Positions 1 to 25,184 of a stretch of 26,230 bases of DNA are shown here, one piece after another. Each line of letters starts with the position of its first letter. The first letter of the stretch is position 1. This DNA is from a virus: UHGV virus genome UHGV-0206901. One strand, written 5' to 3'. Made by a program: the position numbers and the translations under genes. Under the pieces are notes generated by a model. The model was not told the origin of the DNA. It did no database searches and saw nothing but the letters and a program-made list of their open reading frames with translations.

Positions 1-359
1 GTTCACTTCTCTGTGTGAAAGCGAACACAAGACCGTCGGCCCCTCTCGTGTGAAAAAACGCGAAATTGCAGGGCCCCCGGTCAACCGGGGCCCTGATAGA
101 AATTGAAATATGGAATGCACGGAAAAACGAATTTGCTGATTTATCGTGTTTTTCCAAATGCCGCTGCGGTTTTTGTAAACAGCGGTGTACATACGGCGTT
201 TCGTCACAAACCGCATCGTAAAATGGCGATTTTTCACGCAAAAAGATGTAAAAACAGCTTGGTTTTAGCATTTTACCGCATTTAGAGATTGCGGTCTTGG
301 CGAAACCCGTGTGGATACCGAAAACCGCAAAACTTCGGAAGATTTGAGGTGGCAAGCAG

Positions 360-659
360 ATGACGGATGCACAGAAAGAACAAGTGCGGGCAATGCGGAT
401 GCAGGGCATCGGATACCGGCTGATTGCAAAGTCACTGGGACTGAAGATCAATCAGGTGCAGTTATTCTGCAAGGCACATGGGCTTGCCGGAAACGGAGAA
501 CTTACACGGCTGAACTATCCGATTTGGTGTCAGCAGAACAACCGCTGTCCCATATGCGGTGCAAAAGTCACACAGCCGGAAACCGGCAGACGCAAACGAT
601 TCTGCTCCGGTCGATGCCGGACAAAACATTACCGAATGAAGAAAAACATGGAGGAATGA
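360..659 (+). CDS. Small DNA-binding protein with an N-terminal helix-turn-helix-like segment and a C-terminal Cys4 zinc ribbon
   Basis: 99-aa ORF with GAGGTGG Shine-Dalgarno about 7 nt upstream of the ATG; N-terminal IGYRLIAKSLGLKINQV resembles an HTH; C-terminus has CPICG...CSGRC cysteine pairs; first gene of the co-directional block. Confidence 0.5.
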   Translation: MTDAQKEQVRAMRMQGIGYRLIAKSLGLKINQVQLFCKAHGLAGNGELTRLNYPIWCQQNNRCPICGAKVTQPETGRRKRFCSGRCRTKHYRMKKNMEE

Positions 660-821
660 AAATGCTTGTAACAGTTTTATGCCTTACTTACATGATGATC
701 ATCATCCTGATCCATGCGATCTGGATATCTTCGATCATCAAGCATGACGGGAAATGCCACTACAACGACTGCGGTCACTGTCCGTATGATGCCTGGTGTC
801 CGATGCAGGAGGAGGAAAAAC

Positions 822-1307
822 ATGACACTGACAGAGAACTTCATTCGTGATGCGATACAGCTTGACAGCGGTGCAGAGGTCATGTACGGCAGCAATCAGA
901 TCTATGACACCTATCCCTGCCGCTTTCCGACTGTTGAATTTCAGCTCATGGCAACGGATACCCTTGTGGAGGTTGCAGACCGCATCCGCATGGAGAAGGG
1001 CTACTTTCCGATGCATCCGTGGGACGGACGCACGGATGATGTGGACTGCGATGGTTGGTACGACTTTTATATCGGGATCAGCAAGCTCCCCGGCGACCAT
1101 CAGCAGTGCCAGCTTGACAGCAGTATCAGCTTTGTTGTTGTCAATTCCGATTCGGATGACAACGAGGATATGTACAACATCGACCTGACGGAATCCGAAA
1201 AGGAATATGTGTATGAGATACTGAACCGACAGTGCCGGAGGTATCACGGCAAGGACTGCGCCGAACTTCTGGCAGAGTCTGAAAAGGAGCTGATGGATAC
1301 AGCATGA
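822..1307 (+). CDS. Hypothetical protein
   Basis: ORF track 714-1307; internal ATG at 822 is preceded by GGAGGAGG (808-815) with a 6-nt spacer; stop overlaps the nrdD start (ATGA at 1304-1307); no recognisable motif. Confidence 0.5.
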   Translation: MTLTENFIRDAIQLDSGAEVMYGSNQIYDTYPCRFPTVEFQLMATDTLVEVADRIRMEKGYFPMHPWDGRTDDVDCDGWYDFYIGISKLPGDHQQCQLDSSISFVVVNSDSDDNEDMYNIDLTESEKEYVYEILNRQCRRYHGKDCAELLAESEKELMDTA

Positions 1308-3451
1308 GAATTATCAAGCGAAACGGCGCAGAGGTGCCGTATGACTGTGAAAAGATCAGAGCCGCAATTACTGCGGCAAACGATGAGATGGATTCCGGCG
1401 ACAGGATCACAGATACAGTAATCGGCTTTATCGTCGGCAGAGTCGAGCAGCGGTGTGAGACGCTTGCAAGACCTGTCCATGTCGAAGAAGTCCAGGACAT
1501 GGTTCTAGATGAGCTTGACAAAGCCGAGGCTTACAAACTTGCACGGCACTACAGCGAATACAGACTCCTGCATGAACAGCAGCGCAGGATGAATACCACG
1601 GACGGAAAAATTCTCAGCTTGCTGGAACGCAATAACGAGGAGGCAAAGCAGGAGAATGCGAACAAGAACCCGATCATCAACAGCACGCTCCGGGACTATA
1701 TGGCAGGCGAAGTCAGCAAGGACATCTGCCGTCGCTTCCTGTTCCCAGCAGATGTGATCGCCGCCCACGATGACGGCATCATCCATGTACACGATCTGGA
1801 CTACATCGCAGAGCCGATGCACAACTGCTGTCTGGTCAATCTTGAAGATATGCTCCAGAACGGTACGGTCGTATCCGGTACAATGATCGAAAAGCCGCAC
1901 AGCTTTTCCACTGCGTGTAACATTGCTACACAGATCATTGCGCAGGTCGCGTCGAACCAGTACGGCGGGCAGACAATTTCTCTGGCACATCTTGCGACTT
2001 TTGTGGATGTCAGCAGACAAAAGATCAGAGCCGAGGTATCTGAGGATGTGAACTGCGACTGCGGCGCAAAGCTGTCGGCGGAAGAACTCGACCATATCGT
2101 TGAGAAGCGTGTGCGCCGGGAAGTCAAGCGTGGTGTACAGACCATCCAGTACCAGATAAACACACTGCTCACCACCAACGGGCAGACTCCGTTTGTGACG
2201 GTGTTTATGTATTTGGACGAGGTGTCGGAGGGACAGACCAGAGATGACCTTGCGCTCATTATCGAGGAAACGCTGCTTCAGCGTATCGAGGGTGTGAAAA
2301 ATGAGAAGGGCGTCTGGATCACCCCGGCATTCCCGAAGCTTATCTATGTTCTCGATAAGGGTAATATCACCGAGGACAGCCGCTATTGGTATCTTACGAA
2401 GCTTGCCGCAAAATGCACGGCAAAGCGTATGGTTCCTGACTATATCTCCGCCAAGATCATGAAGAAGCTGAAGGGTGATGTGTATGCCTGCATGGGCTGC
2501 CGCAGTTTCCTCACGCCTTCGGACGATCACAAGTATTACGGCAGATTCAATCAGGGTGTTGTCACGCTGAATCTGGTGGATGTGGCGTGTTCTTCCAACG
2601 GTGATATGGACAAATTCTGGCAGCTTCTGAATGAACGCTGCGACCTATGCTTCAAGGCTCTGATGTGCAGGCATGAGCGGCTGAAAGGTACGCCGTCTGA
2701 TGTTGCGCCGATCCTCTGGCAGAACGGTGCATTGGCACGACTCGGCAAGGGTGAAACAATCGACAAGCTGCTGTATAACAATTACAGCACCATTTCACTC
2801 GGCTATGCCGGCATCGCAGAAATGACCTACCGCATGACGGGCTGTTCGCATACGGAGCCGGACGGAAAAGTATTTGCACTTGCAGTGATGAAATTCCTGA
2901 ATGAGAAGTGTGCGGCATGGAGAGAGCAGACAGGGATTTCTTTCTCCCTGTACGGCACGCCGATGGAATCTGTGACCTACAAATTCTCTCAGTGCTTACA
3001 GCGCAGACACGGTATTATCCCTCATGTGACGGATAAAAACTACATCACAAATTCGTATCATGTTCACGTTACTGAGCCGATTGACGCATTCAGCAAGCTG
3101 ACATTCGAGTCCGAATTTCAGGAGCTTTCACCGGGCGGTGCGATCAGCTATGTGGAAGTGCCGAATATGCAGCACAATATTCCTGCGGTACTTGCACTGA
3201 TGCGGCATATCTACGAAACGATTTTGTACGCCGAACTGAACACCAAATCTGATTACTGTCAGGCTTGCGGCTATGACGGCGAAATACAGATCGTGGAGGA
3301 GGACGGCAAGCTGATCTGGGAATGCCCGAACTGCGGCAACCGCGATCAGCGGACACTGAATGTATGCCGCCGCACCTGCGGTTACCTCGGAACGCAGTTC
3401 TGGAATCAGGGGCGCACCGCTGAGATCAAAGACCGGGTGATGCACCTGTGA
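1304..3451 (+). CDS. nrdD: Anaerobic ribonucleoside-triphosphate reductase (class III RNR)
   Basis: 715 aa; N-terminal ATP-cone-like region (MRIIKRNGAEVPYDCEKIRAAI); C-terminal zinc ribbon CQACG...CPNCG; glycyl-radical motif RRTCGYLG close to the C-terminus; followed directly by the activase gene. Confidence 0.93.
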   Translation: MRIIKRNGAEVPYDCEKIRAAITAANDEMDSGDRITDTVIGFIVGRVEQRCETLARPVHVEEVQDMVLDELDKAEAYKLARHYSEYRLLHEQQRRMNTTDGKILSLLERNNEEAKQENANKNPIINSTLRDYMAGEVSKDICRRFLFPADVIAAHDDGIIHVHDLDYIAEPMHNCCLVNLEDMLQNGTVVSGTMIEKPHSFSTACNIATQIIAQVASNQYGGQTISLAHLATFVDVSRQKIRAEVSEDVNCDCGAKLSAEELDHIVEKRVRREVKRGVQTIQYQINTLLTTNGQTPFVTVFMYLDEVSEGQTRDDLALIIEETLLQRIEGVKNEKGVWITPAFPKLIYVLDKGNITEDSRYWYLTKLAAKCTAKRMVPDYISAKIMKKLKGDVYACMGCRSFLTPSDDHKYYGRFNQGVVTLNLVDVACSSNGDMDKFWQLLNERCDLCFKALMCRHERLKGTPSDVAPILWQNGALARLGKGETIDKLLYNNYSTISLGYAGIAEMTYRMTGCSHTEPDGKVFALAVMKFLNEKCAAWREQTGISFSLYGTPMESVTYKFSQCLQRRHGIIPHVTDKNYITNSYHVHVTEPIDAFSKLTFESEFQELSPGGAISYVEVPNMQHNIPAVLALMRHIYETILYAELNTKSDYCQACGYDGEIQIVEEDGKLIWECPNCGNRDQRTLNVCRRTCGYLGTQFWNQGRTAEIKDRVMHL

Positions 3452-3915
3452 ATTACTGCGGTCTGAATAAAAACGACATCGCCAACGGTGACGGTGTACG
3501 AGTTTCGCTGTTCGTATCCGGATGCCGGAATCACTGCAAGGGCTGTCACAACCCGGAGACATGGGATTTCAGCTATGGACAGCCTTTCACCAAGAAAACT
3601 GAAGATGAGATCATCGAAGCCCTGCGTCCCTCGTGGATACAGGGGCTTTCTGTTCTCGGCGGTGAACCCTGCGAGGAAGAAAACGAGCGTGTGCTGCTGC
3701 CGCTGCTGAAAAAGATCTGGTGGGAGATGCCGGAAAAAGATATTTGGCTGTATAGCGGGTACACCTATGAACAGTTGCAAGGCAGAGCGATACTTCGGTA
3801 TGTGGATGTACTTGTGGACGGTCCGTTTCTGCTGGAGCAGAAGGATATCTCGCTTCCGTTCCGCGGCAGCCGGAATCAACGGATCCTCCGATTAAGAAAT
3901 GGGGTACGGGTATGA
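3448..3915 (+). CDS. nrdG: Anaerobic ribonucleotide reductase activating protein (radical SAM)
   Basis: GTG start overlapping the nrdD stop (GTGA); N-terminus MNYCGLNKNDIANGDGVRVSLFVSGCRNHCKGCHN matches the canonical NrdG N-terminus, including the CxxxCxxC radical-SAM cluster. Confidence 0.9.
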   Translation: MNYCGLNKNDIANGDGVRVSLFVSGCRNHCKGCHNPETWDFSYGQPFTKKTEDEIIEALRPSWIQGLSVLGGEPCEEENERVLLPLLKKIWWEMPEKDIWLYSGYTYEQLQGRAILRYVDVLVDGPFLLEQKDISLPFRGSRNQRILRLRNGVRV

Positions 3916-4229
3916 GAGCCAGACTGAGACCGCCAGGAGATGCCGTTCGCTGCGATGCCTGCGGATGTGCATTTGTTCCGGAAACACTGACGCAGCGTGA
4001 GGGTGAGATCGAATACAGCTTCTTCCGCTGCGACTATTGCGGCAAGGCGTATCTCGTATCCGTTACGGATGCAGACCTCTGCAAGGATATCCGCAGATAC
4101 AGAACGCTTGCGGAAAAGCACAAGATCAAGCCCCTGAGTGAACAGTCGCTCCGCGAGATGGCTGCGCTGAAAGAGCAGAACTTAAAACGAGCCGCAAAGC
4201 TGCGGCAGTTGTACTATGTGGAGGGATGA
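3912..4229 (+). CDS. Zinc-ribbon protein, function unknown
   Basis: 105-aa ORF whose ATG overlaps the nrdG stop; two CxxC pairs (CDACGC, CDYCGK); basic C-terminal tail. Confidence 0.5.
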   Translation: MRARLRPPGDAVRCDACGCAFVPETLTQREGEIEYSFFRCDYCGKAYLVSVTDADLCKDIRRYRTLAEKHKIKPLSEQSLREMAALKEQNLKRAAKLRQLYYVEG

Positions 4230-4230
4230 G

Positions 4231-5514
4231 ATGAAGACAGCAGAACTTCGTGTGATCCCTGTCACGGAGCTGAAGCCTGCGGCATATAACCCGCGCAAAA
4301 AGCTGAAGCCCGGCGACAAGGAATACGAAAAGATCAAAAACAGCATCGAGGAATTCGGCTTTGCCGATCCGCTGGTAGTCAACGCCGACATGACCATCAT
4401 CGGCGGGCATCAGCGACTGACCGTAGCGATGGCGCTCGGATACACCGAGGTACCCTGTGCGGTGGTGGACATCGACAAGGTCAGAGAAAAGGCGCTGAAC
4501 ATTGCGCTCAACAAGATCACCGGCGCATGGGACGAGAGCCTTCTGGCTGAACTGTTGCAGGACATTCAGGACAGCGACTTCGACCTCGGAAAGACCGGCT
4601 TTGATCCGCCGGAGATCGAGCAGCTTTTCAATCAGGTACACAATAAAGACATCAAGGAAGATGACTTTGATATTGAAGAAGAGCTGAAACAGCCGACCTT
4701 CTCAAAACTCGGTGACCTGTGGATTCTGGGCAAGCACCGTATCGTCTGCGGTGACAGCACCAAGTCGGAAACCTACGAGCTGCTTATGAACGGTGAAAAA
4801 GCAAATCTCCTGCTGACCGATCCGCCGTACCTCGTAGCATACAGCAATACCTCCGGCAGCATCAAGAACGATGACCTTTCGGATAAGGAAGGCTATGAAT
4901 TCCTGAAAAGCGCATTTGCCTGTTTCAAAGAGAACCTTGCAGATGATTCTGCGGTGTATGTTTTCTACGCGACATCAAAATCGAGGGTGTTCTATGACGC
5001 TTTCGAGGATGCCGGATTCCGTGTTTCTTGCGGATTGGTCTGGCGCAAGGACAGGCTTGTGCTGTCGAGGACGGACTATCAGCAGAACTTCGAGCCTGTG
5101 ATCTACGGCTGGAAAAAGAACGGCAAGCACACATGGTACGGTGACCGTAAGCAGACCACCTGCTTTGACTTCGACCGTCCGAAAAGCTCCAAAGCCGAGG
5201 GTGAGGGACATCCGACTGCAAAGCCTGTACCGCTGATGGCATATCTCATCAAGCAGTCCACCATGACAAACGGCATTGTGCTGGACGGCTTCCACGGTTC
5301 CGGTTCTACCATGATCGCCTGTGAACAGCTCGACCGAAAATGCAGAGCTGTAGAATTGGATGAAAAGTTTGTGGACGTTCAAGTGAAGCGGTATATCAAA
5401 TTCCGCGAGGGCAAGTACGATGATGTGTATGTCATCCGTGACGGGCAGAAGCTTTCCTTCGATGAAGCGGTGGCAGCGATGCCGACAGCAGAGGGTGGTG
5501 ATACGAATGGGTGA
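4231..5514 (+). CDS. ParB-like nuclease domain fused to a DNA amino-methyltransferase (probably N6-adenine; beta-class motif order)
   Basis: ATG at 4231 preceded by GGAGGGA; N-terminal ParB/Srx-like region (ELKPAAYNPRK...IIGGHQRL); central LLLTDPPY (motif IV) precedes GFHGSGST (motif I), the beta-class order. Confidence 0.85.
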   Translation: MKTAELRVIPVTELKPAAYNPRKKLKPGDKEYEKIKNSIEEFGFADPLVVNADMTIIGGHQRLTVAMALGYTEVPCAVVDIDKVREKALNIALNKITGAWDESLLAELLQDIQDSDFDLGKTGFDPPEIEQLFNQVHNKDIKEDDFDIEEELKQPTFSKLGDLWILGKHRIVCGDSTKSETYELLMNGEKANLLLTDPPYLVAYSNTSGSIKNDDLSDKEGYEFLKSAFACFKENLADDSAVYVFYATSKSRVFYDAFEDAGFRVSCGLVWRKDRLVLSRTDYQQNFEPVIYGWKKNGKHTWYGDRKQTTCFDFDRPKSSKAEGEGHPTAKPVPLMAYLIKQSTMTNGIVLDGFHGSGSTMIACEQLDRKCRAVELDEKFVDVQVKRYIKFREGKYDDVYVIRDGQKLSFDEAVAAMPTAEGGDTNG

Positions 5515-6310
5515 ACTGAAACCTCTGCTTCATGTGGTCTCCTTCAGCGGCGGGAAAGACAGCACTGCGATGCTCCTGAAGATGTTAGAAATGGGAATGC
5601 AGGTTGATCTGGTGCTGTTTTGCGATACCGGATTAGAATTCCCGGCACTGTATGACCATGTACACAAAGTCGAACAGGATACCGGCGTGAAAATCACGAC
5701 TGTAAAGAGCGAAAACACATTTGAGTATCTCATGCTCCACAAGCCGATCAAGCGGAAGAAACCGGAACTGCGCGGCAAGACCGGTTACAGTTGGGCGGGA
5801 CCGCTGATGCGGTGGTGTACAAACCTTCTGAAAACGGTGCCTCGTGAGAAGTTTCTCAGCGAACTGCGGAAAAATTACGATGTGATCGAGTACATCGGCA
5901 TCGCCGCCGATGAAACGGAACGCATCACGCACAAATGCAGCTGCCGACCGAATGTCCGTCTGCCGCTTGTGGAGTGGGGCATGACCGAAGCTGACTGCCT
6001 GCAATACTGCAGGGAACGCGGCTATGACTGGGGCGGTCTGTATGAGAAATTCGGACGGGTATCCTGTTGGTGCTGTCCGCTGCAGCCGCTGAACGAGCTG
6101 CGTGTCCTCTACTACGATTTTCCCGACCTCTGGAAACAACTCAGGGAATGGGATGATGCAACATGGCGCACCTTCAAGCCCGGATGGTCAGTCCGGAAAC
6201 TGGAGGCGCGTTTTGATTTTGAGCTGGAATGGCAGACGGACGGCAATCAGCTCGGCACAAAGGAATTCCACAAAGCCCTGAAAAAGAGACTGGAGGATGT
6301 CGATGGCTGA
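5507..6310 (+). CDS. PAPS-reductase-like PP-loop protein (DndC-like fold family), possible DNA-modification accessory enzyme
   Basis: Internal ATG at 5507 with upstream GAGGGTGGTGA; PP-loop motif SFSGGKDS near the N-terminus; C-terminal cysteine cluster CWCCP; 8-nt overlap with the upstream methyltransferase gene and 8-nt overlap with the downstream one. Confidence 0.75.
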   Translation: MGELKPLLHVVSFSGGKDSTAMLLKMLEMGMQVDLVLFCDTGLEFPALYDHVHKVEQDTGVKITTVKSENTFEYLMLHKPIKRKKPELRGKTGYSWAGPLMRWCTNLLKTVPREKFLSELRKNYDVIEYIGIAADETERITHKCSCRPNVRLPLVEWGMTEADCLQYCRERGYDWGGLYEKFGRVSCWCCPLQPLNELRVLYYDFPDLWKQLREWDDATWRTFKPGWSVRKLEARFDFELEWQTDGNQLGTKEFHKALKKRLEDVDG

Positions 6311-7082
6311 TGTGAAATGTGAGCTGTATCACGATAACTTCCAGAACTTCAAATCCTACTGCATCCCAAAAGCACAGCTCGTCATTGCTGACATTCCGTA
6401 CAACATCGGCGGCGACTTTTATGCCAGCCGTCCCGACTGGTATGTGAACGGTGACAATCAGAACGGTGAAAGCAGCAAAGCGCACAAGGCTGCATTCCAC
6501 ACGGATTACACCTTCAACATCGCTGAATACTTCGCCTTCTGTAACCGGCTGCTCAAAAAGGAGCCGTCCAAAGGTGAGAAGGATGCTCCCTGCATGATTG
6601 TATTCTGTGCCTTTCAGCAGATACCCGAGGTCATCCGGCAGGCGGAGAAATACGGCTTCAAGAAGTATCAGTTTTTGTGCTTTATGAAGAATTACAGTCC
6701 GCAGGTGCTGAAGGCGAACATGAGGATCGTGGGCGCAACGGAGTTTGCTCTGGTGCTGTATCGGGGAAAGCTGCCGAAGTTCCGCAATACCGATGCATAC
6801 GGCAAGAGGCACATGATCTTCGACCATTTTGACTGGATGCGGGACGGCAAGGATATCCCGAAGATACATCCTTCGCAGAAGCCGGTAAATCTCCTGAAAC
6901 GGCTGATCGGGATATTTACCGACGAGGGTGATGTGGTCATCGATCCCTGCGCCGGTTCCGGCTCAACGCTGCGTGCGGCGAGGGAGCTTGGCAGACACAG
7001 CTACGGCTTTGAAGTCAGCCGAGATTTTTACAACAAAGCCTGTGAGCAGATGCTTGGGGAGGTGCAGGATGACAAAGTATGA
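6303..7082 (+). CDS. DNA amino-methyltransferase (N6-adenine or N4-cytosine), divergent motif IV
   Basis: ATG at 6303 is 6 nt after GGAGG; IADIPYN (variant DPPY-type motif IV) near the N-terminus and DPCAGSGST (motif I, AdoMet binding) near the C-terminus. Confidence 0.7.
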   Translation: MADVKCELYHDNFQNFKSYCIPKAQLVIADIPYNIGGDFYASRPDWYVNGDNQNGESSKAHKAAFHTDYTFNIAEYFAFCNRLLKKEPSKGEKDAPCMIVFCAFQQIPEVIRQAEKYGFKKYQFLCFMKNYSPQVLKANMRIVGATEFALVLYRGKLPKFRNTDAYGKRHMIFDHFDWMRDGKDIPKIHPSQKPVNLLKRLIGIFTDEGDVVIDPCAGSGSTLRAARELGRHSYGFEVSRDFYNKACEQMLGEVQDDKV

Positions 7083-7284
7083 GTGCGCCATTGTGACGGC
7101 ATACACAGATATCTCGATGCTGTGCGGCGATGATCTGAAATATCTGTATGACTATCTTTCCGGCTTTATCGGCAGACCGGTGTATACACACGAGATTCCT
7201 GCGGTGGCTGCGGCTTACAGAGACAAGATCAGAGAGGACTTCCTCGATCTGTGCAGGAACGCAAAGGAGGCGGATGATGGATAA
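7069..7284 (+). CDS. Small hypothetical protein
   Basis: 71-aa ORF starting at an internal ATG of ORF 6928-7284, overlapping the upstream methyltransferase stop; no recognisable motif; the 11-nt overlap with the next gene suggests translational coupling. Confidence 0.4.
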   Translation: MTKYECAIVTAYTDISMLCGDDLKYLYDYLSGFIGRPVYTHEIPAVAAAYRDKIREDFLDLCRNAKEADDG

Positions 7285-9487
7285 GAAACACTTGACCCTC
7301 GGCAGCCTGTTTGACGGCTCGGGGGGGTTTCCGCTTGGCGGCATCCTCGCAGGGATCGAGCCGAAGTGGAGCAGCGAAATTGAACCTTTTCCGGTGCTTG
7401 TCACGCACAAGCGACTGCCTGGGGTGAAGCACTACGGCGATGTATCCACACTGAACGGTGCAGAGCTTCCGCCGGTGGATATTATCACCTTCGGCAGCCC
7501 TTGTCAGGATCTGTCCATTGCTGGAAAGCGTGCCGGAATCCATGACGGTGATCGGTCGAACCTGTTCTTTCAGGCGATCCGTATCATCAAAGAAATGAGG
7601 GATGCAACAAATGGACAATACCCGCGATACTGCGTCTGGGAGAATGTCCCCGGCGCTTTCTCCTCCCACGGAGGAGACGATTTCAAAGCTGTCCTCGAAG
7701 CAGTTATCGGAATTAAAGAAGAAGGGATCGAGGTGCCTGCGCCTGAAAATCACAGATGGGCAAAATCAGACGTATATCTGGGAGACGGATGGAGCGTGGC
7801 TTACCGAGTTTTCGATGCTCAATACTGGGGTGTCCCCCAACGCAGAGCAAGAATCTACCTTGTCGCAGATTTTGCTGGCGGAAGTGCCGGAGAAATACTA
7901 TTTAAGTCCGAAGGCGTGTCTGGGTATACTCCGCAGGGCTTCCGTTCGTGGCAAGGAACTGCCGGAGGTGCTGAAGAAAGCACTGGAGCGACAGGCTGGC
8001 GGTCTGACGCTGGAGGTGGAACCCTCTGCGTAAACTGTCAGGGCACGGCAGGTGTCGGTATCACAGAAGATAAGGCACTGGCACTTGTCGCACAGGATCA
8101 CGGGAATCATCCAGCCGTTCTTGCCGCAGGTTTTTCCACAGAGCATAGTGCAAAAGCACGAAGCATCGGCTACGAAGAGGAAGTATCTCCTACACTGAGA
8201 GCTGGTGTTGTTCCGGCGGCAATGGAGCTTCAAAGCTATCCCGTTGAAAATCATCCTGCGGATTCGAGAGTCAGGGTGCGTGAGGACGGAAAGTGTCAGG
8301 GGCTTACAGGCAGAATGGGAACAGGCGGCGGAAACGTACCGCTTGTAGCAGAACCGATTACGCTAAAAATCCGCAGTGGTGGCGGAAATGGTGGTAAGGG
8401 CGCTATCTGGCAAACAGATAAATCCGCAACTCTTGCAACCAATAATGACCAGACGCTTTTTCAGCCGGAGGTCAAGGCTTTCGGTGTATGCAGCAAGCAC
8501 TCCAATGCGATGATGTCCGACAATCCGCACAGCGGATTCTATGAGGCGACCACAAGCAGAACGCTCGACCAAAGTGGTGGAAATTCTGTGACATCGAATC
8601 AGGGCGGCATCTGCGTGGTAGCACCTGCGCCTGAAACCTTCGATGTGCGTTTCACATCAGACGGTACAAAAAACGCTCGTGGGCATTGTTACCCGACAGA
8701 CATTTCCCGATGCCTTGATACGAGCGAGGCGAACCCGGACAGCAATCACGGAGGAGTTGCGGTGGTGGCTCTCGAACCGGGGGCGGCATCCCGTATCGGC
8801 GGTCATGTATACAGTGACGGCAAAAGCGGCACGCTCCGTGCAAATGCCGGAGACAATCAGCAGGCTGTTGTGGTAGCCGAGAAGGAGACCTATGCACTGC
8901 AAGGCTCGATGATCGGTCGCGCCGATCAGAACGGACCGCAGGGTGATGGTATCAATGAAGATGTGTGCTTTACGCTGAACACAACAGACAGGCATGCTGT
9001 CGCAGCACCGGATGCCGATCACTACAGCACAAGCAAGAATTCTCACCACACAGTCGCCGCACATGAACAGGCAAACACGCTGGTCGCATCCGACTGGAAG
9101 GATCCTCCGCTTGTGAACGACCTTCCGAATGACGAGCCGGTATATATCGTTCGTCGTCTGACTCCGGTGGAGTGCGCCAGATTGCAGGGATTCCCCGACT
9201 GGTGGTGTGCCGACCTTGCGATTCCCGATCCGACCGATGAGGAGATCACCTTCTGGATGGAAGTATGGGAAACTTGGAGACAGATCACAAATCCCAAGGG
9301 AAAGCCGAAAACGGAAAAGCAGATCCGCAAATGGTTGGCTGATCCGTACACGGACAGTGCCGAGTACAAGTTATGGGGCAACGGTGTCTCAGAGCCCGTT
9401 GTGTTCTTCGTGCTATCCGGCATTGCCTGGGCGGCACAGAATTCTGAAACTAATGCAGCAAATTGTGAACATTCTGATACTATGTAA
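7274..9487 (+). CDS. DNA cytosine-5 methyltransferase with an exceptionally long variable (target-recognition) region, possibly multispecific
   Basis: ATG at 7274 preceded by AAGGAGG (7264-7270); motif I LFDGSGG, motif IV GSPCQDLS, motif VI ENVPG, motif VIII QRRARIYLV, C-terminal RRLTPVECARLQGFPDWW; about 480 aa lie between motifs VIII and IX. Confidence 0.9.
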   Translation: MMDKKHLTLGSLFDGSGGFPLGGILAGIEPKWSSEIEPFPVLVTHKRLPGVKHYGDVSTLNGAELPPVDIITFGSPCQDLSIAGKRAGIHDGDRSNLFFQAIRIIKEMRDATNGQYPRYCVWENVPGAFSSHGGDDFKAVLEAVIGIKEEGIEVPAPENHRWAKSDVYLGDGWSVAYRVFDAQYWGVPQRRARIYLVADFAGGSAGEILFKSEGVSGYTPQGFRSWQGTAGGAEESTGATGWRSDAGGGTLCVNCQGTAGVGITEDKALALVAQDHGNHPAVLAAGFSTEHSAKARSIGYEEEVSPTLRAGVVPAAMELQSYPVENHPADSRVRVREDGKCQGLTGRMGTGGGNVPLVAEPITLKIRSGGGNGGKGAIWQTDKSATLATNNDQTLFQPEVKAFGVCSKHSNAMMSDNPHSGFYEATTSRTLDQSGGNSVTSNQGGICVVAPAPETFDVRFTSDGTKNARGHCYPTDISRCLDTSEANPDSNHGGVAVVALEPGAASRIGGHVYSDGKSGTLRANAGDNQQAVVVAEKETYALQGSMIGRADQNGPQGDGINEDVCFTLNTTDRHAVAAPDADHYSTSKNSHHTVAAHEQANTLVASDWKDPPLVNDLPNDEPVYIVRRLTPVECARLQGFPDWWCADLAIPDPTDEEITFWMEVWETWRQITNPKGKPKTEKQIRKWLADPYTDSAEYKLWGNGVSEPVVFFVLSGIAWAAQNSETNAANCEHSDTM

Positions 9488-9526
9488 GCTGTTCTGTATG
9501 GGCTTTCCGTGATATGCACAATCTCA

Positions 9527-9542
9527 GGGGCGTAAAAGCCCC
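9527..9542 (+). terminator. GC hairpin downstream of the C5-methyltransferase gene (possible operon terminator)
   Basis: GGGGC gtaaaa GCCCC stem-loop about 40 nt after the stop; the downstream T-tract is weak. Confidence 0.35.
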
Positions 9543-9564
9543 GTACATTCTACGATTTACAGTC

Positions 9565-9593
9565 TTGATATATCCGCCGTAATGGCGTAATAT
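9565..9593 (+). promoter_or_regulatory. Sigma-A-type promoter cassette 1 (TTGATA, 17 bp, TAATAT) with conserved leader
   Basis: -35 TTGATA at 9565-9570, 17-bp spacer, -10 TAATAT at 9588-9593; leader GTGACTACCGTAAGGGAAAACCGAGCGGAATCAAAAACGAAACGGAGGA precedes the ATG at 9650. Confidence 0.6.
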
Positions 9594-9649
9594 GTGACTA
9601 CCGTAAGGGAAAACCGAGCGGAATCAAAAACGAAACGGAGGATTCACAT

Positions 9650-10771
9650 ATGAAAACTTATGCAATGATCATTGGAAACCGCAAGGAACTCACAAAGAGA
9701 ATCGAGGCACTCACCGGAGAGCGCAGCGTATACACCTTCATGCCGAGATGCGCCTATGAGATCGGGGCATTCGCAGTCGAGAAGGACGGCACACTTACGG
9801 CACAGGACGATGCCAACCAGAGCGTGATCGACACCCTGAGAGCCGAGGGTATGATCGGTGATGAGATCATCGCAGAGAGCATCGAGGCAGTCGAGCCGGA
9901 GCAGACCGATGAGACCGCAGAGCCGGAACAGCCTGCACCGCCCGTAAGCACCGATGAATGGGACGATGATGAGGATGACGACGATGAGAACAGCGTCGAG
10001 GGCGAGAATGCGGAAGCGGAAGAGCCGGAGGAGTCCGAAGAAAATGCCGATAAGTCGGAGCCTGCCGCAGAGCCAGAAGCCGCACCTCCTGCGACCGAGG
10101 ATGCCTGGGATGATGAACCGGAGGATGAACCCGGCGACGAGCCGGAAGAAACCACCGAGCTTCCTGAACCGCTGACCGCAGAGATCAGCTTCCCGCTGAG
10201 CCATCACACGGTGCAGAGCCTTACGAACCTCATCTGCATGATCCACTCCCGCGGCGCACTTCTCAGCAAGGCGACCGGCGGAGAATTCTTCGCAGACAAG
10301 AGCCTCGCCGATGCGATCCTCGATGACAAGACCTTCCGCAGCATCCACGAGCTTATCGCCTACATCAGAGTATGGGAGGAAACGAATCCCGAACTGAAGG
10401 GCATCCGTTTCGCCGATGACAAGCTGATCTTTGACGGCTTCGGTGCAGCACAGGATGCCGAGACGGTGCAGACCTTCACCAAGCTCGCCGCAGCCATGAA
10501 CAGGATGGCGATCACGCAGAAACGTGTGCAAGCAAAGGATGTCGATGACAGCAACGAAAAGTACGCACTCCGCATCTGGCTGATCCGCCTTGGGCTGAAC
10601 GGTGCTGACTTCAAGGCTGACCGCAAGCGCCTCATGACTCCGCTTTCCGGACACACCGCATTCCGCAACGATGAGGAGCGTGAACGCTGGGAGGCAAAGC
10701 AAAAGGCAAAGCGTGATGCTGCCAGAACCGAACTGACCGAGGAGGATGAAAACGATGCAGTTTCCGAATGA
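9650..10771 (+). CDS. Amidoligase-like paralog, probably catalytically degenerate, with a ~95-aa acidic low-complexity insertion
   Basis: 373 aa; the C-terminal half aligns by eye with the downstream amidoligase-like ORF (TVQSLTNL vs TPQTLRNL; KYALRIWLIRLGLNGADF vs KFAMRTWLMRMGFIGDEF); the GVEIE and HCH motifs of the paralog are absent; residues ~80-172 are D/E/P-rich. Confidence 0.55.
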   Translation: MKTYAMIIGNRKELTKRIEALTGERSVYTFMPRCAYEIGAFAVEKDGTLTAQDDANQSVIDTLRAEGMIGDEIIAESIEAVEPEQTDETAEPEQPAPPVSTDEWDDDEDDDDENSVEGENAEAEEPEESEENADKSEPAAEPEAAPPATEDAWDDEPEDEPGDEPEETTELPEPLTAEISFPLSHHTVQSLTNLICMIHSRGALLSKATGGEFFADKSLADAILDDKTFRSIHELIAYIRVWEETNPELKGIRFADDKLIFDGFGAAQDAETVQTFTKLAAAMNRMAITQKRVQAKDVDDSNEKYALRIWLIRLGLNGADFKADRKRLMTPLSGHTAFRNDEERERWEAKQKAKRDAARTELTEEDENDAVSE

Positions 10772-11003
10772 ACGACAGCTCAAAGCCTTGCGGGAGCGTT
10801 ATCCCGAAGGCACCCTTATCCGACTGAAGCACATGGACGATCCCTACGCACCAGTGCCGCCCGGAACAATTGGCGAGGTTCAGATGGTCGATGACGGCGG
10901 CAACATACACATGGTCTGGCAGAACGGCAGAACGCTTTCTCTTATAGAAGGCGTGGATGATTTCCAGGTCATTTCTGACCGCAATGGGGGCCCCGGAAAA
11001 TAA
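10755..11003 (+). CDS. Small hypothetical protein
   Basis: ATG at 10755 is 8 nt after GGAGGA and overlaps the upstream gene end; 82 aa, glycine-rich beta-like sequence (GTIGEVQMVDDGGNIHMVWQNG). Confidence 0.5.
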   Translation: MQFPNERQLKALRERYPEGTLIRLKHMDDPYAPVPPGTIGEVQMVDDGGNIHMVWQNGRTLSLIEGVDDFQVISDRNGGPGK

Positions 11004-11116
11004 GAGATCCTATTCCATTGTATCCGAGTATACCATAGAATTTCAAGTATATCAAGTGTACACATACACCAGATATGAGCAATGTATTTTCCTCGATATT
11101 CTGTGGTTTTAGCGGC

Positions 11117-11145
11117 TTGCTATATCCTCCGAAAGACGGTAACAT
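11117..11145 (+). promoter_or_regulatory. Sigma-A-type promoter cassette 2 (TTGCTA, 17 bp, TAACAT) with conserved leader
   Basis: -35 at 11117-11122, -10 at 11140-11145; leader GTGACACAACGGAAGGGCAAATGCCCACCGAAAAACCGAATCGGAGGA; ATG at 11201. Confidence 0.6.
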
Positions 11146-11200
11146 GTGACACAACGGAAGGGCAAATGCCCACCGAAAAACCGAATCGGAGGATACCAAA

Positions 11201-12145
11201 ATGACTGAGAAAACCGCACAGCAGATCAACAGAATGAAGGAGCAGACCATCGGGGTTGAGATCGAGATGAACAACATCACCCGCAAGGCTGCCGCAAAGC
11301 TCGCCGCTGACTTCTTCGGCACGAACCGCTACGAGGACACGGCCTGCCGCAACGGCTACTACACTTGGAGCGCATGGGATGCACAGGGGCGCGAGTGGAA
11401 ATTCCAGCGGGACGTGAGCATCGCAGGCTCCGACAGCGAAAAGTGCGAACTGGTCACACCGATCCTGCACTACGCAGACATCGAAACCCTGCAGGAGCTT
11501 GTGAGAAAGCTCAGGAAGGCAGGAGCGCGCAGTGATTACACGCGGGGATGTGGAGTCCACTGCCATATTGGAGCCCAGGGACACACACCGCAGACCTTGA
11601 GAAACCTCGCAAACCTGATGGCAAGCCACGAAACCCTGATCGCCGAGGCAATCAGAGTAGACCAGAGCAGAATGCGCCGCTACTGCAGAACAGTTGACCC
11701 GAGATTCCTTGAACAGCTCAACCGCAAAAAGCCCACCACGATGGCACAGCTTGCGGACATCTGGTACGGCGCACAGGGCTGCGAATACGGCAGAACCCAC
11801 CACTACAACGACAGCCGCTATCACATGCTCAACCTCCACGCTACCTTCACCAAAGGCACGGTCGAGTTCAGACTTTTCCAGTTCGCACCGCCCTCAAACG
11901 GCAAGCAGAACGGGCTCCACGCAGGCAAGCTCAAGAGCTACATTCAGCTCTGCCTCGCAATGAGCCAGATGGCAAAGGACCTGCGGAGCGCCAGCCCCAA
12001 GGAGCAGCAGAAGGAAAACAAAAAGTTCGCCATGCGGACTTGGCTGATGAGAATGGGATTCATCGGGGATGAATTCGCAACGGCGAGAGAGGTCCTCACT
12101 GAGAACCTTACGGGCGACAACAGCTTCCGCTTCGGCAGATCTTAA
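11201..12145 (+). CDS. Putative amidoligase (glutamine-synthetase-like / gamma-glutamyl-cysteine-ligase-like ATP-dependent amide ligase family)
   Basis: 314 aa; N-terminal IGVEIEMNN strand with paired glutamates and a central GCGVHCHIG motif, both typical of Amidoligase_2-type enzymes as I recall them; own promoter cassette; followed by an AIG2-like gene. Confidence 0.65.
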   Translation: MTEKTAQQINRMKEQTIGVEIEMNNITRKAAAKLAADFFGTNRYEDTACRNGYYTWSAWDAQGREWKFQRDVSIAGSDSEKCELVTPILHYADIETLQELVRKLRKAGARSDYTRGCGVHCHIGAQGHTPQTLRNLANLMASHETLIAEAIRVDQSRMRRYCRTVDPRFLEQLNRKKPTTMAQLADIWYGAQGCEYGRTHHYNDSRYHMLNLHATFTKGTVEFRLFQFAPPSNGKQNGLHAGKLKSYIQLCLAMSQMAKDLRSASPKEQQKENKKFAMRTWLMRMGFIGDEFATAREVLTENLTGDNSFRFGRS

Positions 12146-12410
12146 AGGCCTGCCCTTCGGGGCGGAAGAACAAGCGGAACGGCACGGCGGCGCACACAGC
12201 CGCCACGGTCTCGGCTCTCGCCTCGGTCGGTGCTTCTGCTTCGCAGAGGTTGCCACTGGCAACCCGCACCCCCGTGTGGGGCGGAAAGGGTATCCTCCGA
12301 ATCGGTATCCCATCTCAGTCAACCGCGCCACACAGCGCAAATGTAGGCAAGGCATAAAATGCACAACATACGGCACAGAATCGCCCTCGATGATCTGTTC
12401 ATTTACTCGC

Positions 12411-12439
12411 TTGATAATGCCGCCGAAATGAGTTAACAT
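12411..12439 (+). promoter_or_regulatory. Sigma-A-type promoter cassette 3 (TTGATA, 17 bp, TAACAT)
   Basis: -35 at 12411-12416, -10 at 12434-12439; leader AGCACTACCGCAAGGAAAAAACGCAAAGGAG; ATG at 12479. Confidence 0.55.
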
Positions 12440-12478
12440 AGCACTACCGCAAGGAAAAAACGCAAAGGAGAACATAGC

Positions 12479-12940
12479 ATGAACAAGAAAAAATACTACA
12501 TAGCCTACGGCAGCAACCTCAACATCCGCCAGATGCGATTCCGCTGCCCAGGCGCAAAGCCTATCGGCATCACGGTGATTCCCGACTACGAACTGCTCTA
12601 CAAGGGCAGCAAGACCGGCGCGTACCTGACCATAGAACCGAAGAAGAACGGCATCGTTCCGATTGCGGTATGGGAGGTCACCGCAGCAGACGAGAAGCGG
12701 CTGGATGCCTACGAGGGCTGCCCGACCTTCTACTACAAGAAGAACGTCTGCCTGCCGGTGAAGCTGGCAAGCGGCAAGACCAAGCGCCTGACAGCATTCG
12801 TCTACATCATGCACGAGGAGCGCAGCCTCGGAATTCCGTCGCTTGCCTACATCCGCACCTGCGAGGAAGGCTATCGCAACTTCGGATTTGATTTGAAGTA
12901 CCTTGACAGGGCATACATGAGAAGCACAAAGGAGGACTGA
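12479..12940 (+). CDS. AIG2 / gamma-glutamyl cyclotransferase (GGCT)-like protein
   Basis: 153 aa; N-terminal YIAYGSNLN matches the Y-x-A-Y-G-S-N-L/M hallmark of the GGCT/AIG2 fold; a candidate catalytic Glu lies in LDAYEGCP. Confidence 0.7.
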   Translation: MNKKKYYIAYGSNLNIRQMRFRCPGAKPIGITVIPDYELLYKGSKTGAYLTIEPKKNGIVPIAVWEVTAADEKRLDAYEGCPTFYYKKNVCLPVKLASGKTKRLTAFVYIMHEERSLGIPSLAYIRTCEEGYRNFGFDLKYLDRAYMRSTKED

Positions 12941-12942
12941 AA

Positions 12943-13146
12943 ATGAAAGAACAAGTTTTTGAAAAGCGTACATGTCCGAAATGCGGACGCACCTACACCG
13001 AGCGCCCTGCCCTATCCCGCTACGACAACGACACGATCATCTGCCCGGACTGCGGCACGAGGGAGGCGCTTGAAAGCATCGGCGTCGGACGCGAGGAACA
13101 GGACAAGATTCTCGGCATTATCCACGAGAAGTACAACGGCGAATAA
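12943..13146 (+). CDS. Small zinc-ribbon protein
   Basis: 67 aa; GGAGG RBS; CPKCG...CPDCG cysteine pairs; the ATG is 2 nt after the upstream stop. Confidence 0.55.
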   Translation: MKEQVFEKRTCPKCGRTYTERPALSRYDNDTIICPDCGTREALESIGVGREEQDKILGIIHEKYNGE

Positions 13147-13154
13147 GGCGGCAC

Positions 13155-13178
13155 AAAGGGGCGTTACAGCCCCTTTCC
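13155..13178 (+). terminator. Putative intrinsic terminator
   Basis: AAAGGGGC gttaca GCCCCTTT hairpin followed by TCC; 8 nt after the stop of the zinc-ribbon gene. Confidence 0.5.
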
Positions 13179-13317
13179 GCATTCTCAGGGATAACTTATC
13201 CCCCACTTTCCGGGCGTGACACGGCGCGTTCTGGCGCAAACTGTGGGCTTGTGTATATGTACCTGTTCAGCTTGCTGAAAACGGCGATTCTTCTACGATT
13301 TATTTTGCACATAGGCG

Positions 13318-13346
13318 TGGACATATCGCCGGGATCATGGTAATAT
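13318..13346 (+). promoter_or_regulatory. Sigma-A-type promoter cassette 4 (TGGACA, 17 bp, TAATAT) with upstream A/T-rich element
   Basis: TTTATTTTGCACATAGGCG upstream; -35 at 13318-13323; TG-extended -10 at 13341-13346; leader CACAACGGCAGGGGCAGACAGCCCACC. Confidence 0.6.
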
Positions 13347-13404
13347 GCTACACAACGGCAGGGGCAGACAGCCCACCGGAATTCATAACATGGAGGATAC
13401 GAAT

Positions 13405-13875
13405 ATGAACGACAGCTACTTTGAGGAGATGACCTTCCAGTGCGCCGCCTATGAACGCGCCAAAAAGGAGCGCGCCGAGCGCAAGGCTCAGATTGCCGAA
13501 GCCCACGGCTACGACAGCCCGGAGATGGACGCTTGGTACGCTGAGGAGAAGGCGGCGGGTCCTTACCCCTACAGCGGCGGTGAGATGAAAGCCTACTGGG
13601 TGTACAAGATGCGCCGCGAGAACGACGGTGACGAGTTCGAGATGAGCGATTACTGCTGGGACAAGGAATTCCACGATTTCATCGAAACGCTCCGCAAGCT
13701 AGGCATCACCGAGTTCACGATCACCAATCAGAGCACGGCGCTGATGGAGAACATCTACGGATTTATTGCAGAAGGCTGCACGATGGTCGGAACGCACACC
13801 ATCACCAAGAAGAGCCTGCGCTGGGGCGAGGAAGAATACGAAACGGCACAGGGCATCCTTTTCAAGGTGAACTGA
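13405..13875 (+). CDS. Hypothetical protein
   Basis: ATG at 13405 is 8 nt after GGAGGA, the same position as in the other cassettes; 156 aa; no recognisable motif. Confidence 0.55.
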   Translation: MNDSYFEEMTFQCAAYERAKKERAERKAQIAEAHGYDSPEMDAWYAEEKAAGPYPYSGGEMKAYWVYKMRRENDGDEFEMSDYCWDKEFHDFIETLRKLGITEFTITNQSTALMENIYGFIAEGCTMVGTHTITKKSLRWGEEEYETAQGILFKVN

Positions 13876-13883
13876 TATCGACA

Positions 13884-13920
13884 GGAGCAGGGCTTCGGCT
13901 CTGCTCCCCCTCCCCCTTTT
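13884..13920 (+). terminator. UUCG-tetraloop hairpin, putative terminator
   Basis: GGAGCAGGGC ttcg GCTCTGCTCC (10 bp with one G-U pair) followed by CCCCTCCCCCTTTT; the same hairpin recurs at 15715-15738. Confidence 0.45.
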
Positions 13921-13993
13921 CCTCATGTGTAAATCCTACAATACGAAAGGCTGAGATCGGCGATTCTTCTACGTTTTATTTTGCACATAGGCG

Positions 13994-25180: not shown

Positions 25181-25184
25181 AAAA

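Follow-up and report, generated by a model that had tools for sequence, protein, structure and literature searches.

Genes and features at the locus

The DNA analyzed here is a 26,230-nucleotide (nt) stretch of the virus genome UHGV-0206901, referred to as the window, which belongs to a gut phage of approximately 69 kb, of Clostridia type and with HK97-like packaging genes. The subject of this report is the noncoding gap at the left end of the window, which lies between an HNH endonuclease gene and a gene for a small protein with helix-turn-helix (HTH) and zinc-ribbon domains, and in which a candidate cohesive-end site (cos) and a second conserved block were identified. An initial annotation had proposed a possible operator or promoter region for an early operon at this position. 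The HTH gene that it named was confirmed as encoding a 99-amino-acid (aa) protein with an N-terminal HTH and a C-terminal zinc ribbon, which is listed in 440 blocks of the collection; searches of Pfam, NCBIfam, PHROGs, and PDB returned just phrog_2308, a family of unknown function, and a weak YacG-like zinc ribbon.

Relatives were gathered using the HTH protein and DNA patterns, giving 49 unique versions of the 5' block of the gap and 34 unique versions of the 3' block, and these two sets are the relatives referred to below. The longest sequences read were human gut contigs of approximately 64 to 81 kb and one of 162 kb. In all of these long contigs the genes are arranged on one strand in the order PolA, DUF932, SNF2 helicase, PemK-like, D5-type primase-helicase, MetK, and the 119-aa HNH protein, followed by the gap of approximately 450 nt, the HTH gene, NrdD, NrdG, ParB-methylase, PAPS-reductase-like, and more methylases. 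The segment from MetK through the HNH gene and the gap to the HTH gene is constant across all relatives, and in all of them the base corresponding to window position 1 lies approximately 91 nt 3' of the HNH stop codon. The 119-aa open reading frame (ORF) upstream of the window was assigned as an HNH endonuclease by a match to PF01844 (L001:9191-9547).

The window itself contains a small terminase (TerS) gene of the P27 family, a large terminase (TerL) gene, and head genes for an HK97-type portal (PF04860), an HK97-fold capsid (PF05065), and a ClpP-type protease, so that with the HNH gene all of the TerS, TerL, portal, capsid, and HNH components of an HK97-like packaging set were found. The TerS is the protein expected to recognize the cos region. 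Features of the gap and the genes discussed are listed in Table 1.

Table 1. Features of the noncoding gap and selected genes, with positions in the window
Feature	Position	Strand	Basis or remark
Variable cos segment ending in GAC (31-33)	1-33	+	Alignments; same architecture in other phages
10-nt GC block CGTCGGCCCC, predicted cohesive-end segment	34-43		Columns invariant in 49 relatives
TCTCGTGTGAAAAAACGCGAAATTG, A-tract and CGCGAAAT box, candidate small-terminase recognition site	44-68		Conserved columns
Hairpin of the initial annotation, CAGGGCCCC(C)GG-TCAA-CCGGGGCCCTG	69-95		Probable cos-associated GC-rich inverted repeat; starts 36 nt past the RAC junction
AT-rich, poorly conserved linker	96-158		Left part of the 96-295 module swapped in L009
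Hairpin GCCGCTG-N13-CAGCGGT, holding ACCGCA site 1 (165-170, minus strand)	159-187	+	Compensatory arm changes in closer relatives
Conserved blocks TTTCGTnA (199-206) and AAAAyGGCGnTTTTTCACGCAAAA (220-243); site 2 (210-215) not conserved	196-243		Invariant columns in 34 relatives
ACCGCAT (site 3), the sole well-conserved copy	275-281	+	CCGCAT exact in 28 of 34
TGCGGT (site 4), inverted-repeat partner	290-295	-	Not conserved (12 of 34); absent in L009
Near-invariant 24-nt box CTTGGCGrAgCCCGTGTGGATACC	296-319	+	At the -10/discriminator/start position, without a sigma-70 -10 hexamer
Putative 5' leader with site 5 (324-329) and ribosome-binding site GAGGTGG (346-352)	320-359	+	Leader similarity to other promoters
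HTH and zinc-ribbon gene, 99 aa	360-659	+	First gene after the candidate cos, in the place of terS in canonical relatives
Small terminase, P27 family (Terminase_4)	17054-17548	+	TIGR01558, 2.4e-27; PF05119, 2.9e-31
Large terminase, HK97/Terminase_1 type, with LAGLIDADG-type intein	17548-20214	+	PF03354, PF20441, PF14528

Similarity of positions 1 to 95 to HNH-associated cos regions

Alignment of the relatives divided the gap into two conserved blocks, A and B, with the variable linker between them. Block A extends from approximately 60 nt before the window to approximately position 95 and begins with a G-rich run, which is followed by GGGGCGGGT(C/T)..A(A/T)TCTCT, a variable segment, the invariant AGACCGTCG(G/C)CCCC (30-43), the A-tract and box, and the hairpin. 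The second of these elements, here termed the left motif, runs from approximately 12 nt before the window to approximately position 13. Within the A-tract and box, the columns AAAA..CGC.A..TT (53-67) were invariant in 49 relatives.

A blastn search of annotated phages with block A returned a sole match, to NatCom_9291 (PV036421, Ca. Heliusvirales, host [Clostridium] innocuum), where the matching sequence, CCCAGGGGCGGTCAAAATCTCTAAAATGACCGTCACCG...GGGGTCTTGCGTGTAAAAAAGGCGAAATCAAAAGGG, occupies a 108-nt gap between the HNH and TerS (Terminase_4) genes. At least 120 stretches of viral contigs carried the left motif in the form GCGGTCNAAATCTCT. Twelve of these loci were inspected, and in 11 the upstream ORF ended with an HNH-type motif; the next gene was mostly a P27-type terS; at two loci (L223 and L232) an HTH-zinc-ribbon gene followed the cos instead. 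Gene assignments were confirmed with Pfam in four loci, with both HNH and TerS identified in L217, L218, and L212. In L218, which carries the same DNA element in the order HNH-cos-terS-terL, the TerS and HNH proteins share 56% and 55% identity, respectively, with those of this phage. The element was also found in Streptococcus Javan prophages and in Oscillospiraceae and Ruminococcus phages. The architecture common to these loci comprises the end of the HNH gene, GGGGCGGTCNAAATCTCT, approximately 21 variable nt ending in RAC, a 10-nt GC block, a TCnCGnGnGAAAAA..GCGAAAT box, in many cases a GC inverted repeat that starts at +36 to +39, and then the ribosome-binding site that serves a terS of the P27 type. 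The GC block is GGGCGTGGGG or CGGCGCCCCC in the other phages and CGTCGGCCCC here.

The element in the window can be aligned directly with those of NatCom_9291, the IMG/VR sequences L217 and L218, and the Streptococcus Javan prophages, and it is homologous to elements at the cos position of canonical HNH-cos-terS phages. As in those phages, it lies directly 3' of the HNH gene. It differs in not lying directly 5' of terS, which is located 17 kb downstream, and in its extent: in phages of the NatCom_9291 type the element is approximately 100 nt long and leads straight into the terS ribosome-binding site, and its inverted repeat has arms of 4 to 5 bp (of the GGGGTATTAACCCC type), compared with 9 to 11 bp here.

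The RAC junction, at the 3' end of the variable segment, falls between positions 33 and 34 of the window, and a number of contigs in the databases have their limit at precisely this point. The contig IMGVR_3300044712_000950 terminates after ...AAATCTCT-N20(...TAGAC), which was verified as contig position 1, and contig 3300037339_000488 terminates after the homologous ...TAGATAC. Two such limits were verified as contig ends (L267/L428 and L437); with L265, three related contigs in all end at the junction, and a fourth, L420, starts at the next base. Independent contigs sharing the same terminal nucleotide are what a physical DNA end produces. A reason for caution with contig ends was found in the public metagenome contig L173 (positions 1 to 75), where Illumina/Nextera adapter sequence (CAAGCAGAAGACGGCATACGA...AGATGTGTATAAGAGACAG) is fused to the G-rich cos stretch, an assembly artifact.

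The cos of HK97 has a 10-nt 3' overhang, and the binding site of its small terminase spans +15 to +29 relative to the cut, where a C:G pair adjoins an A/T tract (PMC11331095, on the HK97 TerS-DNA structure); cos phages that depend on an HNH protein and have a TerS of the P27 family were described by Kala et al. 2014 (as cited in PMC11331095). No gene lies between the HK97 HNH gene, gp74, which ends 319 nt before the right end, and cos, and the first gene past cos is terS. When the deposited ends of HK97 were joined, giving ...GGGCAGGGGGGGGGATCAAATCTTCAAAACCTTTGCCCCAAATGACCGCCGCCAAA followed by GTTTGAATTTAACGCTAACCCGATTTTTTTAG, the order of elements was a G-run, ATCAAATCT, 26 nt, and then GACCGCCGCC, which begins 13 nt before the end junction; the matching GAC precedes the last 10 bases of the right end, CGCCGCCAAA. 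The corresponding sequence in this phage is GGGGGCGG(G)TCGAAATCTCT..., with 26 nt from AAATCT to GACCG as in HK97, followed by ...GACCGTCGGCCCC TCTCGTGTGAAAAAACGCGAAATTG. The two phages therefore share the order G-run, (A)TCNAAATCT, approximately 26 nt, and GACCG(C/T)CG..., together with an HNH gene immediately upstream of the site, a box with an A/T tract next to a C:G pair 15 to 30 nt past the cut, where the HK97 TerS binds, and a packaging set made up of a Terminase_4 TerS, a Terminase_1-type TerL, an HK97-type portal and capsid, and HNH. They differ in that the site here is followed by a 17-kb accessory block led by the HTH-zinc-ribbon gene and not by terS, and in that the GC hairpin at +36 is much larger in this phage, whose segment before the cut evolves fast and can form a hairpin; sequence similarity is weak, and the ends of this phage are placed by reference to its relatives.

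On this comparison, the terminase, aided by the HNH protein, would cut one strand between positions 33 and 34. Since in HK97 the GAC is followed by the last 10 bases of the right end and the overhang is a 3' overhang of 10 nt, we infer by analogy that the other strand would be cut at approximately 43/44, leaving positions 34 to 43 as the cohesive segment. The small terminase would, by the same analogy, recognize the A-tract/CGCGAAAT box at 44 to 68, through the columns at 53 to 67.

Sequence immediately before the predicted cut was found to be hypervariable. The G-rich run and the segment of approximately 21 nt between AAATCTCT and the RAC junction (for example, L001:9580-9675) vary despite identical flanks, with four variants among ten contigs that encode one and the same HTH protein. 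All of the variants fold into the upper part of a long hairpin, whose closing arms are GGGGC.GGTC and GACC..GCCCC, and this hypervariable but structure-preserving stretch coincides with the predicted cut site. A tRNA-like, tmRNA, or attP identity of the G-rich block was considered and set aside, as ARAGORN found nothing. Small ORFs within positions 1 to 360 were likewise rejected, as the substitutions and indels in the relatives, judged by eye, are not codon-like.

The hairpin at 69 to 95

The near-perfect GC hairpin that the initial annotation had placed at 71 to 93, with arms GGGCCCCCGG (71-80) and CCGGGGCCC (85-93) and the loop tcaa, is present and slightly longer than described. It extends to CAGGGCCCC (69-77) and GGGGCCCTG (87-95), 9 nt that are 100% complementary, with one C bulged. 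The identical sequence in relative L004 has a folding energy of -22.8 kcal/mol, and by our own rough estimate the chance of a 9-nt perfect inverted repeat with a short loop in 700 nt is approximately 0.03.

To place the hairpin in relation to cos, inverted repeats were counted in the 53 unique cos regions of other phages, all retrieved via the left motif only. Repeats were scored if they were perfect, GC-rich, at least 4 bp long, and located between +21 and +75 with a loop of 3 to 8 nt; 49% of the regions had one, compared with 11% of shuffles, and 21 of 26 such repeats (for example, GGGGTATTAACCCC or GGGGGTATTGCCCCC) begin at +36 to +39. The hairpin in the window begins at +36, the same offset, which identifies it as the cos-associated inverted repeat. 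As judged from sequence and position, it is an enlarged local version of an inverted repeat that is positionally conserved in cos regions, and it is most likely part of the cos packaging site and not an operator of the HTH gene.

Within the phage's own clade of 49 relatives, 76% of the arm cells pair, and the figure is the same on either strand. Only the window and L004 have a perfect stem; most relatives have a C.A mismatch in the middle of the stem and G.T pairs near the top, and within the clade the arms are conserved mostly as sequence. An RNA hairpin on the minus strand, where C.A would read as G.U, was rejected, as the apical pairs are biased the opposite way and pairing stands at 76% on both strands. 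The hairpin may serve as an architectural or recognition element for the terminase, or as a stem-loop that ends or stabilizes transcripts of the HNH operon reading through cos. The first of these is favored by the fixed offset in phages where the inverted repeat directly precedes the terS ribosome-binding site.

A related explanation, compatible with a location in cos, is that the hairpin ends transcription of the upstream MetK-HNH operon as an intrinsic terminator, or that it terminates in both directions or on the minus strand. Its position, approximately 160 to 185 nt past the HNH stop codon and before a new operon, would suit this role, and other operon ends in the window also have GC-rich hairpins with weak U tracts or none. 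The stem is usually more stable on the minus strand (28 of 34 sequence types), where it is followed by CAAUUUCGCGUUUUUU. However, a stem-loop with an immediate U tract was not found: the terminator scan called the hairpin on neither strand, the tail on the plus strand is AUAGAAAUUG and contains no U tract, and the UUUUUU run on the minus strand starts 11 nt beyond the stem and is the complement of the conserved cos A-tract box. The neighboring genes are all on the plus strand and thus offer no evident target for a minus-strand terminator, and in the canonical relatives the inverted repeat at the equivalent position immediately precedes the terS ribosome-binding site, and a terminator there would keep terS from being expressed. 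We therefore regard a terminator as quite unlikely and retain assignment of the hairpin to cos.

ACCGCA copies and the operator explanation

The initial annotation had reported three ACCGCA-containing repeats. The repeats are real but more numerous, with five copies of ACCGCA/TGCGGT between 165 and 329: site 1 at 165-170 (minus strand), site 2 at 210-215 (plus), site 3 at 275-280 (plus), site 4 at 290-295 (minus), and site 5 at 324-329 (plus). The inverted repeat ACCGCA-tttagagat-TGCGGT that it described was located at 275-295. The stretch from 96 to 359 (264 nt) holds all five copies, compared with 0.22 expected, and none of 5,000 dinucleotide-preserving shuffles reached this number. Across the whole window the hexamer is approximately 4-fold overrepresented (58 copies versus 14.5 expected); at this rate approximately 0.4 copies would be expected in 166 nt, and the local cluster still stands out.

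A genome-wide signal, such as a Chi-like sequence or a methylase target, was rejected as the source of this excess, as many NCSGCA-type hexamers are equally enriched relative to synonymous-codon shuffles, indicating a context bias. ACCGCA lies mostly on the minus strand at 555-8758 (11 of 13) and mostly on the plus strand at 8935-25245 (31 of 40), and all genes are on the plus strand. Beyond codon usage, top-strand TGCGGT is enriched in the left part (11 versus 4.7), and both orientations are enriched in the right part (30 versus 16.6 and 9 versus 2.0). ACGGCA, CGGCAT, TCCGCA, and GCGGCA show similar behavior, which again indicates context bias, with an apparent strand switch near 8.8 kb.

Conservation of the five copies is uneven. 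Among the 34 unique relatives, sites 1 to 5 are exact in 8, 12, 23, 12, and 19, respectively. In one relative, L009, the HTH protein is identical (100%) and positions 96-295 have been replaced by a module from another lineage, which lacks sites 1, 2, and 4. As the same HTH protein is found without site 4, the inverted repeat is dispensable, and it does not follow the HTH protein as an operator would. From these alignments, three of the five copies, including one arm of the inverted repeat, appear to be lineage specific and dispensable.

These results bear on the proposal that the whole stretch is an operator or promoter, with the HTH protein controlling a putatively early operon (NrdD/NrdG and DNA methylase genes follow) by binding to the hairpin and to the inverted repeat of ACCGCA. 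The region invariably precedes the HTH gene, the ACCGCA cluster is far above chance, CCGCAT and site 5 form conserved direct repeats 49 nt apart, and a 10-nt insertion in L028, one helical turn, would fit proteins bound on one face of the DNA. Set against this, the hairpin block also occurs in phages that lack an HTH gene at this position and go straight into terS, the inverted repeat at 275-295 is neither conserved nor covarying with the HTH protein, as L009 illustrates, and no sigma-70-type promoter was found in positions 1 to 1400. An operator of this kind is improbable. Of the earlier proposal, a control region is retained for positions 160 to 359, which comparison of homologous regions found conserved before the HTH gene; the hairpin is reassigned to the cos block, and the inverted repeat is dropped for its lack of conservation (site 4).

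In lambda, the nicking region of cos is followed, on the first-packaged side and before the first gene, by protein-recognition elements and repeated short motifs (cosN and cosB), and lambda uses a winged-helix Nu1 with R sites and IHF and has 12-nt 5' overhangs. The arrangement here, a predicted nicking region followed by candidate recognition elements and short repeats ahead of the first gene, is similar. Unlike the lambda R sites, most of the ACCGCA copies are not conserved.

The conserved region upstream of the HTH gene

Block B, at approximately 160 to 359, is noncoding, conserved in relatives with as little as approximately 60% protein identity, and always located before the HTH-zinc-ribbon gene. 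It holds the local hairpin at 159-187, the two conserved blocks that follow it, CCGCAT (276-281), and the 24-nt box (Table 1). The 24-nt box is invariant also in relatives retrieved by protein alone and occurs once per contig and not before terS. Close relatives show no variation in the 65 nt that precede the ATG.

The promoter expected here by the initial annotation was not recovered as a standard one: a scan of positions 1 to 1400 on either strand for a sigma-70-type promoter (-35/-10, with a spacer of 16 to 18 nt) found none. The same scan called promoters at 9565, 12411, 13318, 15810, and 16605, with TTGATA or TGGACA, a 17-nt spacer, and then TAATAT, TATAGT, TATACT, or TAACAT, and a sixth, at approximately 14000 (TGGACT, 17 nt, TAATAT), was found by eye. 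All six share a common leader in which GTGTACAACGG or GTGACTACCG... is followed by AAAACCGAGC..., AAAACGAAACGGAGG, and the ATG. The 3' part of the 24-nt box, GTGTGGATACCG, aligns with GTGTACAACGG/GTGACTACCG after the -10 of these canonical promoters, and from position 309 the region upstream of the HTH gene resembles their leader (GTGTGGATACCGAAAACCGCAAAAC...GAGGTGG...ATG). This likeness places site 5 within a putative 5' untranslated region, with a likely start near 315. Where the other promoters have a -10 hexamer, the HTH region has the invariant CTTGGCGrAgCCC, and in most relatives CCGCAT abuts a -35-like hexamer (TTGAGA, TTGATC, TTGAAA, or TTTACA). The insertion in L028 lies between CCGCAT and the box. 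Sequences similar to the second conserved block, CGGCGATTCTTCTACG, were found upstream of the promoters at 13318 and approximately 14000.

These features suggest that the promoter of the HTH operon is factor dependent and not of the plain sigma-70 type. In the model proposed, transcription would start near 315, the 24-nt box would take the place of the -10 region, and the conserved CCGCAT would sit next to a -35-like hexamer. Comparison of the box by eye with consensus sequences for sigma-54, extracytoplasmic-function, sporulation-sigma, and T7-like promoters found none that fit; for sigma-54, all relatives have GT where the -12 GC is expected, and the box occurs once per genome. The RinA- and ArpU-type late promoters of Firmicutes phages are activator-dependent late or middle promoters, and like them this region has a gene for a small HTH regulator beside the packaging region and combines a -35-like hexamer and a conserved start region with the lack of a -10 hexamer. 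It differs in that no homology of the HTH-zinc-ribbon protein to either RinA or ArpU was found and in the single occurrence of the box.

The six canonical promoters occupy 9540-9650, 12390-12480, 13265-13345, 13955-14078, 15790-15900, and 16545-16690. Several have a second -10-like copy and TGTACAAC approximately 75 nt upstream, and 13283-13345 and 13962-14030 are near duplicates.

The possibility that the region acts as a structured RNA on the plus strand (a long 5' leader, a noncoding RNA, or the 3' untranslated region of the HNH operon) was also considered. On this explanation the ACCGCA/TGCGGT copies would be helix arms (pairing 1 with 5, 2 with 4, or 3 with 4 and 4 with 5) and the hairpins would be processing, stability, or termination signals. 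The plus strand of positions 1-375 folds at -132 kcal/mol (z = -4.9, compared with z = -3.6 on the minus strand), and in its minimum-energy fold sites 1 and 5 are paired, as are sites 2 and 4. RNAalifold on 12 relatives returned a long-range helix between 190-206 and 297-313 with wobble-compatible, one-sided changes, and the hairpin of the variable cos segment is kept in every variant, with some G-U pairs on the plus strand. The hairpin at 159-187 has compensatory changes among closer relatives (arms GCCGCUG/CAGCGGU, GCUGCCG/CGGCAGC, and CACCGCUGCA/UGCGGCGGUG) and is 67% paired over all 34. With all 34 relatives, however, the consensus falls to -7.3 kcal/mol with no pairs changed on both sides, the pairings between ACCGCA sites are just 56 to 73% canonical, the partners of the variable NN positions of the box are uncompensated, and the hairpin at 69-95 pairs equally well or poorly on both strands; the strongly conserved blocks are invariant and hence uninformative on structure. 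Rfam 15 gave no match at E values up to 5 for L001:9100-10400 and no gathering-score match anywhere in the window, and no tRNA or tmRNA genes were found. An RNA function of the region is accordingly rated unlikely.

The gap might instead serve as the origin of phage replication, with 9-mers that resemble DnaA boxes, an AT-rich stretch, and a location just past the replication genes. The sequence TGTGGATAC at 310-318 is the reverse complement of GTATCCACA, a match of 8 of 9 positions to a DnaA box (TTATCCACA-like), TTWTNCACA, with one mismatch or none, is matched five times in positions 1-318 compared with 51 times in 26 kb, and the region comes after the PolA/helicase/primase module. The T-rich pattern also clusters in other AT-rich gaps (for example, 13.1 to 14.0 kb), however, so that composition accounts for much of it. 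Only the box at 310-318 is invariant, the match at 49-57 belongs to the shared cos A-tract box, no iterons were found, and the phage encodes its own primase-helicase and polymerase. An origin is very unlikely.

Placement of the candidate cos region and weighing of the evidence

Taken together, the evidence favors a joint reading, to which we assign a probability of approximately 0.6, in which positions 1-95 are the right-hand part of cos and approximately 160-359 are the control region and leader of the HTH-zinc-ribbon operon. Several observations weigh against it. Contigs of the phage's own clade share no common starting point, with the window beginning 33 nt, L029 22 nt, and L107 53 nt before the junction, and the approximately 69-kb contigs begin at arbitrary positions. 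The starts of the window and L029, which precede the predicted cut, would be explained by breaks in assembly within the variable, G-rich stretch and equally by a physical end nearby; the start of the window was itself rejected as a physical end, as the scatter of the three starts makes such breaks likelier. The pairwise similarity to the HK97 cos is insignificant alone (Smith-Waterman, P approximately 0.1), and the argument thus rests on the intermediate relatives. The distance of 17 kb to terS is unlike every characterized HK97-like cos, and a second functional cos may lie beside terS, where the gap at 16928-17053 was read in the window alone. The hairpin is degenerate in many relatives and largely gone in L030, L066, and L205, and strand-consistent covariation of it was not found among the 49 relatives. 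Finally, the 24-nt box matches no promoter class with which it was compared.

By sequence, the element belongs with the HNH-dependent cos sites of HK97-like phages, and its genomic placement is what is unusual: cos is followed by a 17-kb block with the HTH-zinc-ribbon gene, NrdD/NrdG, DNA methylases, and amidoligases, and terS comes afterwards. The same HNH-cos-HTH order occurs in the second clade formed by L223 and L232. An HTH and FCS-type zinc-ribbon protein thus holds the cos-adjacent place of terS in two separate clades, with 41% identity between the L223 protein and that of this phage. More distant homologues of the HTH protein (35% identity, L036-L042) are encoded after a LysM lysin gene, behind a strong terminator. 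In L223 (IMGVR_UViG_2788500236_000001, positions 1360-1456) a textbook intrinsic terminator, GCTGGGAAAC...GTTTTCCAGCTTTTTCTTTT, lies approximately 25 nt before the HTH ribosome-binding site, which suggests attenuation or antitermination control in that phage; nothing like it was found in the window.

Within the 17-kb block, a 62-aa ORF at 662-850 has a hydrophobic N terminus, ends in a tail rich in Cys and His (CHYNDCGHCPYDAWCP), and runs into the beginning of the following gene. Gene calling identified it in every related contig, and family searches returned no match. Positions 3912-9487 and 9650-12940 are dense in genes for DNA modification and unusual metabolism: a ParB-N-fused N6/N4 methylase, a second N6/N4 methylase, a 779-aa C5 methylase, a PAPS-reductase-like protein, two amidoligase-like proteins, and a gamma-glutamyl cyclotransferase. 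Downstream of the block, the large terminase of 888 aa carries its LAGLIDADG-type intein/homing-endonuclease domain (PF14528, residues approximately 303 to 370) between the N terminus and the ATPase domain.

Neither the cos nor the control-region finding would greatly surprise a specialist. More speculatively, the HTH-zinc-ribbon protein could represent a new factor linked to cos, one that provides packaging specificity or insulation or else activates promoters of a non-sigma-70 class, perhaps acting via the 24-nt box and CCGCAT/GGATACC, which we consider a long shot. Were that so, the enlarged hairpin and the conserved 265-nt region would form a previously undescribed control module that uncouples cos from the terminase operon. 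The invariant box without a sigma-70 promoter is in any case a concrete candidate for factor-dependent transcription in these phages.

Should the assignment to cos hold, it would fix the physical genome ends of an abundant human gut phage lineage. With cos and HNH separated from terS by 17 kb of nucleotide-metabolism and DNA-modification genes, including those at 3912-12940, these genes would be located at one end of the packaged chromosome. The signature of an HNH-dependent HK97-type cos would then be GGGGCGGTCNAAATCTCT, approximately 21 nt, RAC, a 10-nt GC block, an A-tract/GCGAAAT box, and an inverted repeat at +36. Such a signature would extend from prophages of Streptococcus to phages of Clostridia, with a weaker counterpart in HK97, and could help to predict where packaging sites and genome termini lie on phage contigs from metagenomes.

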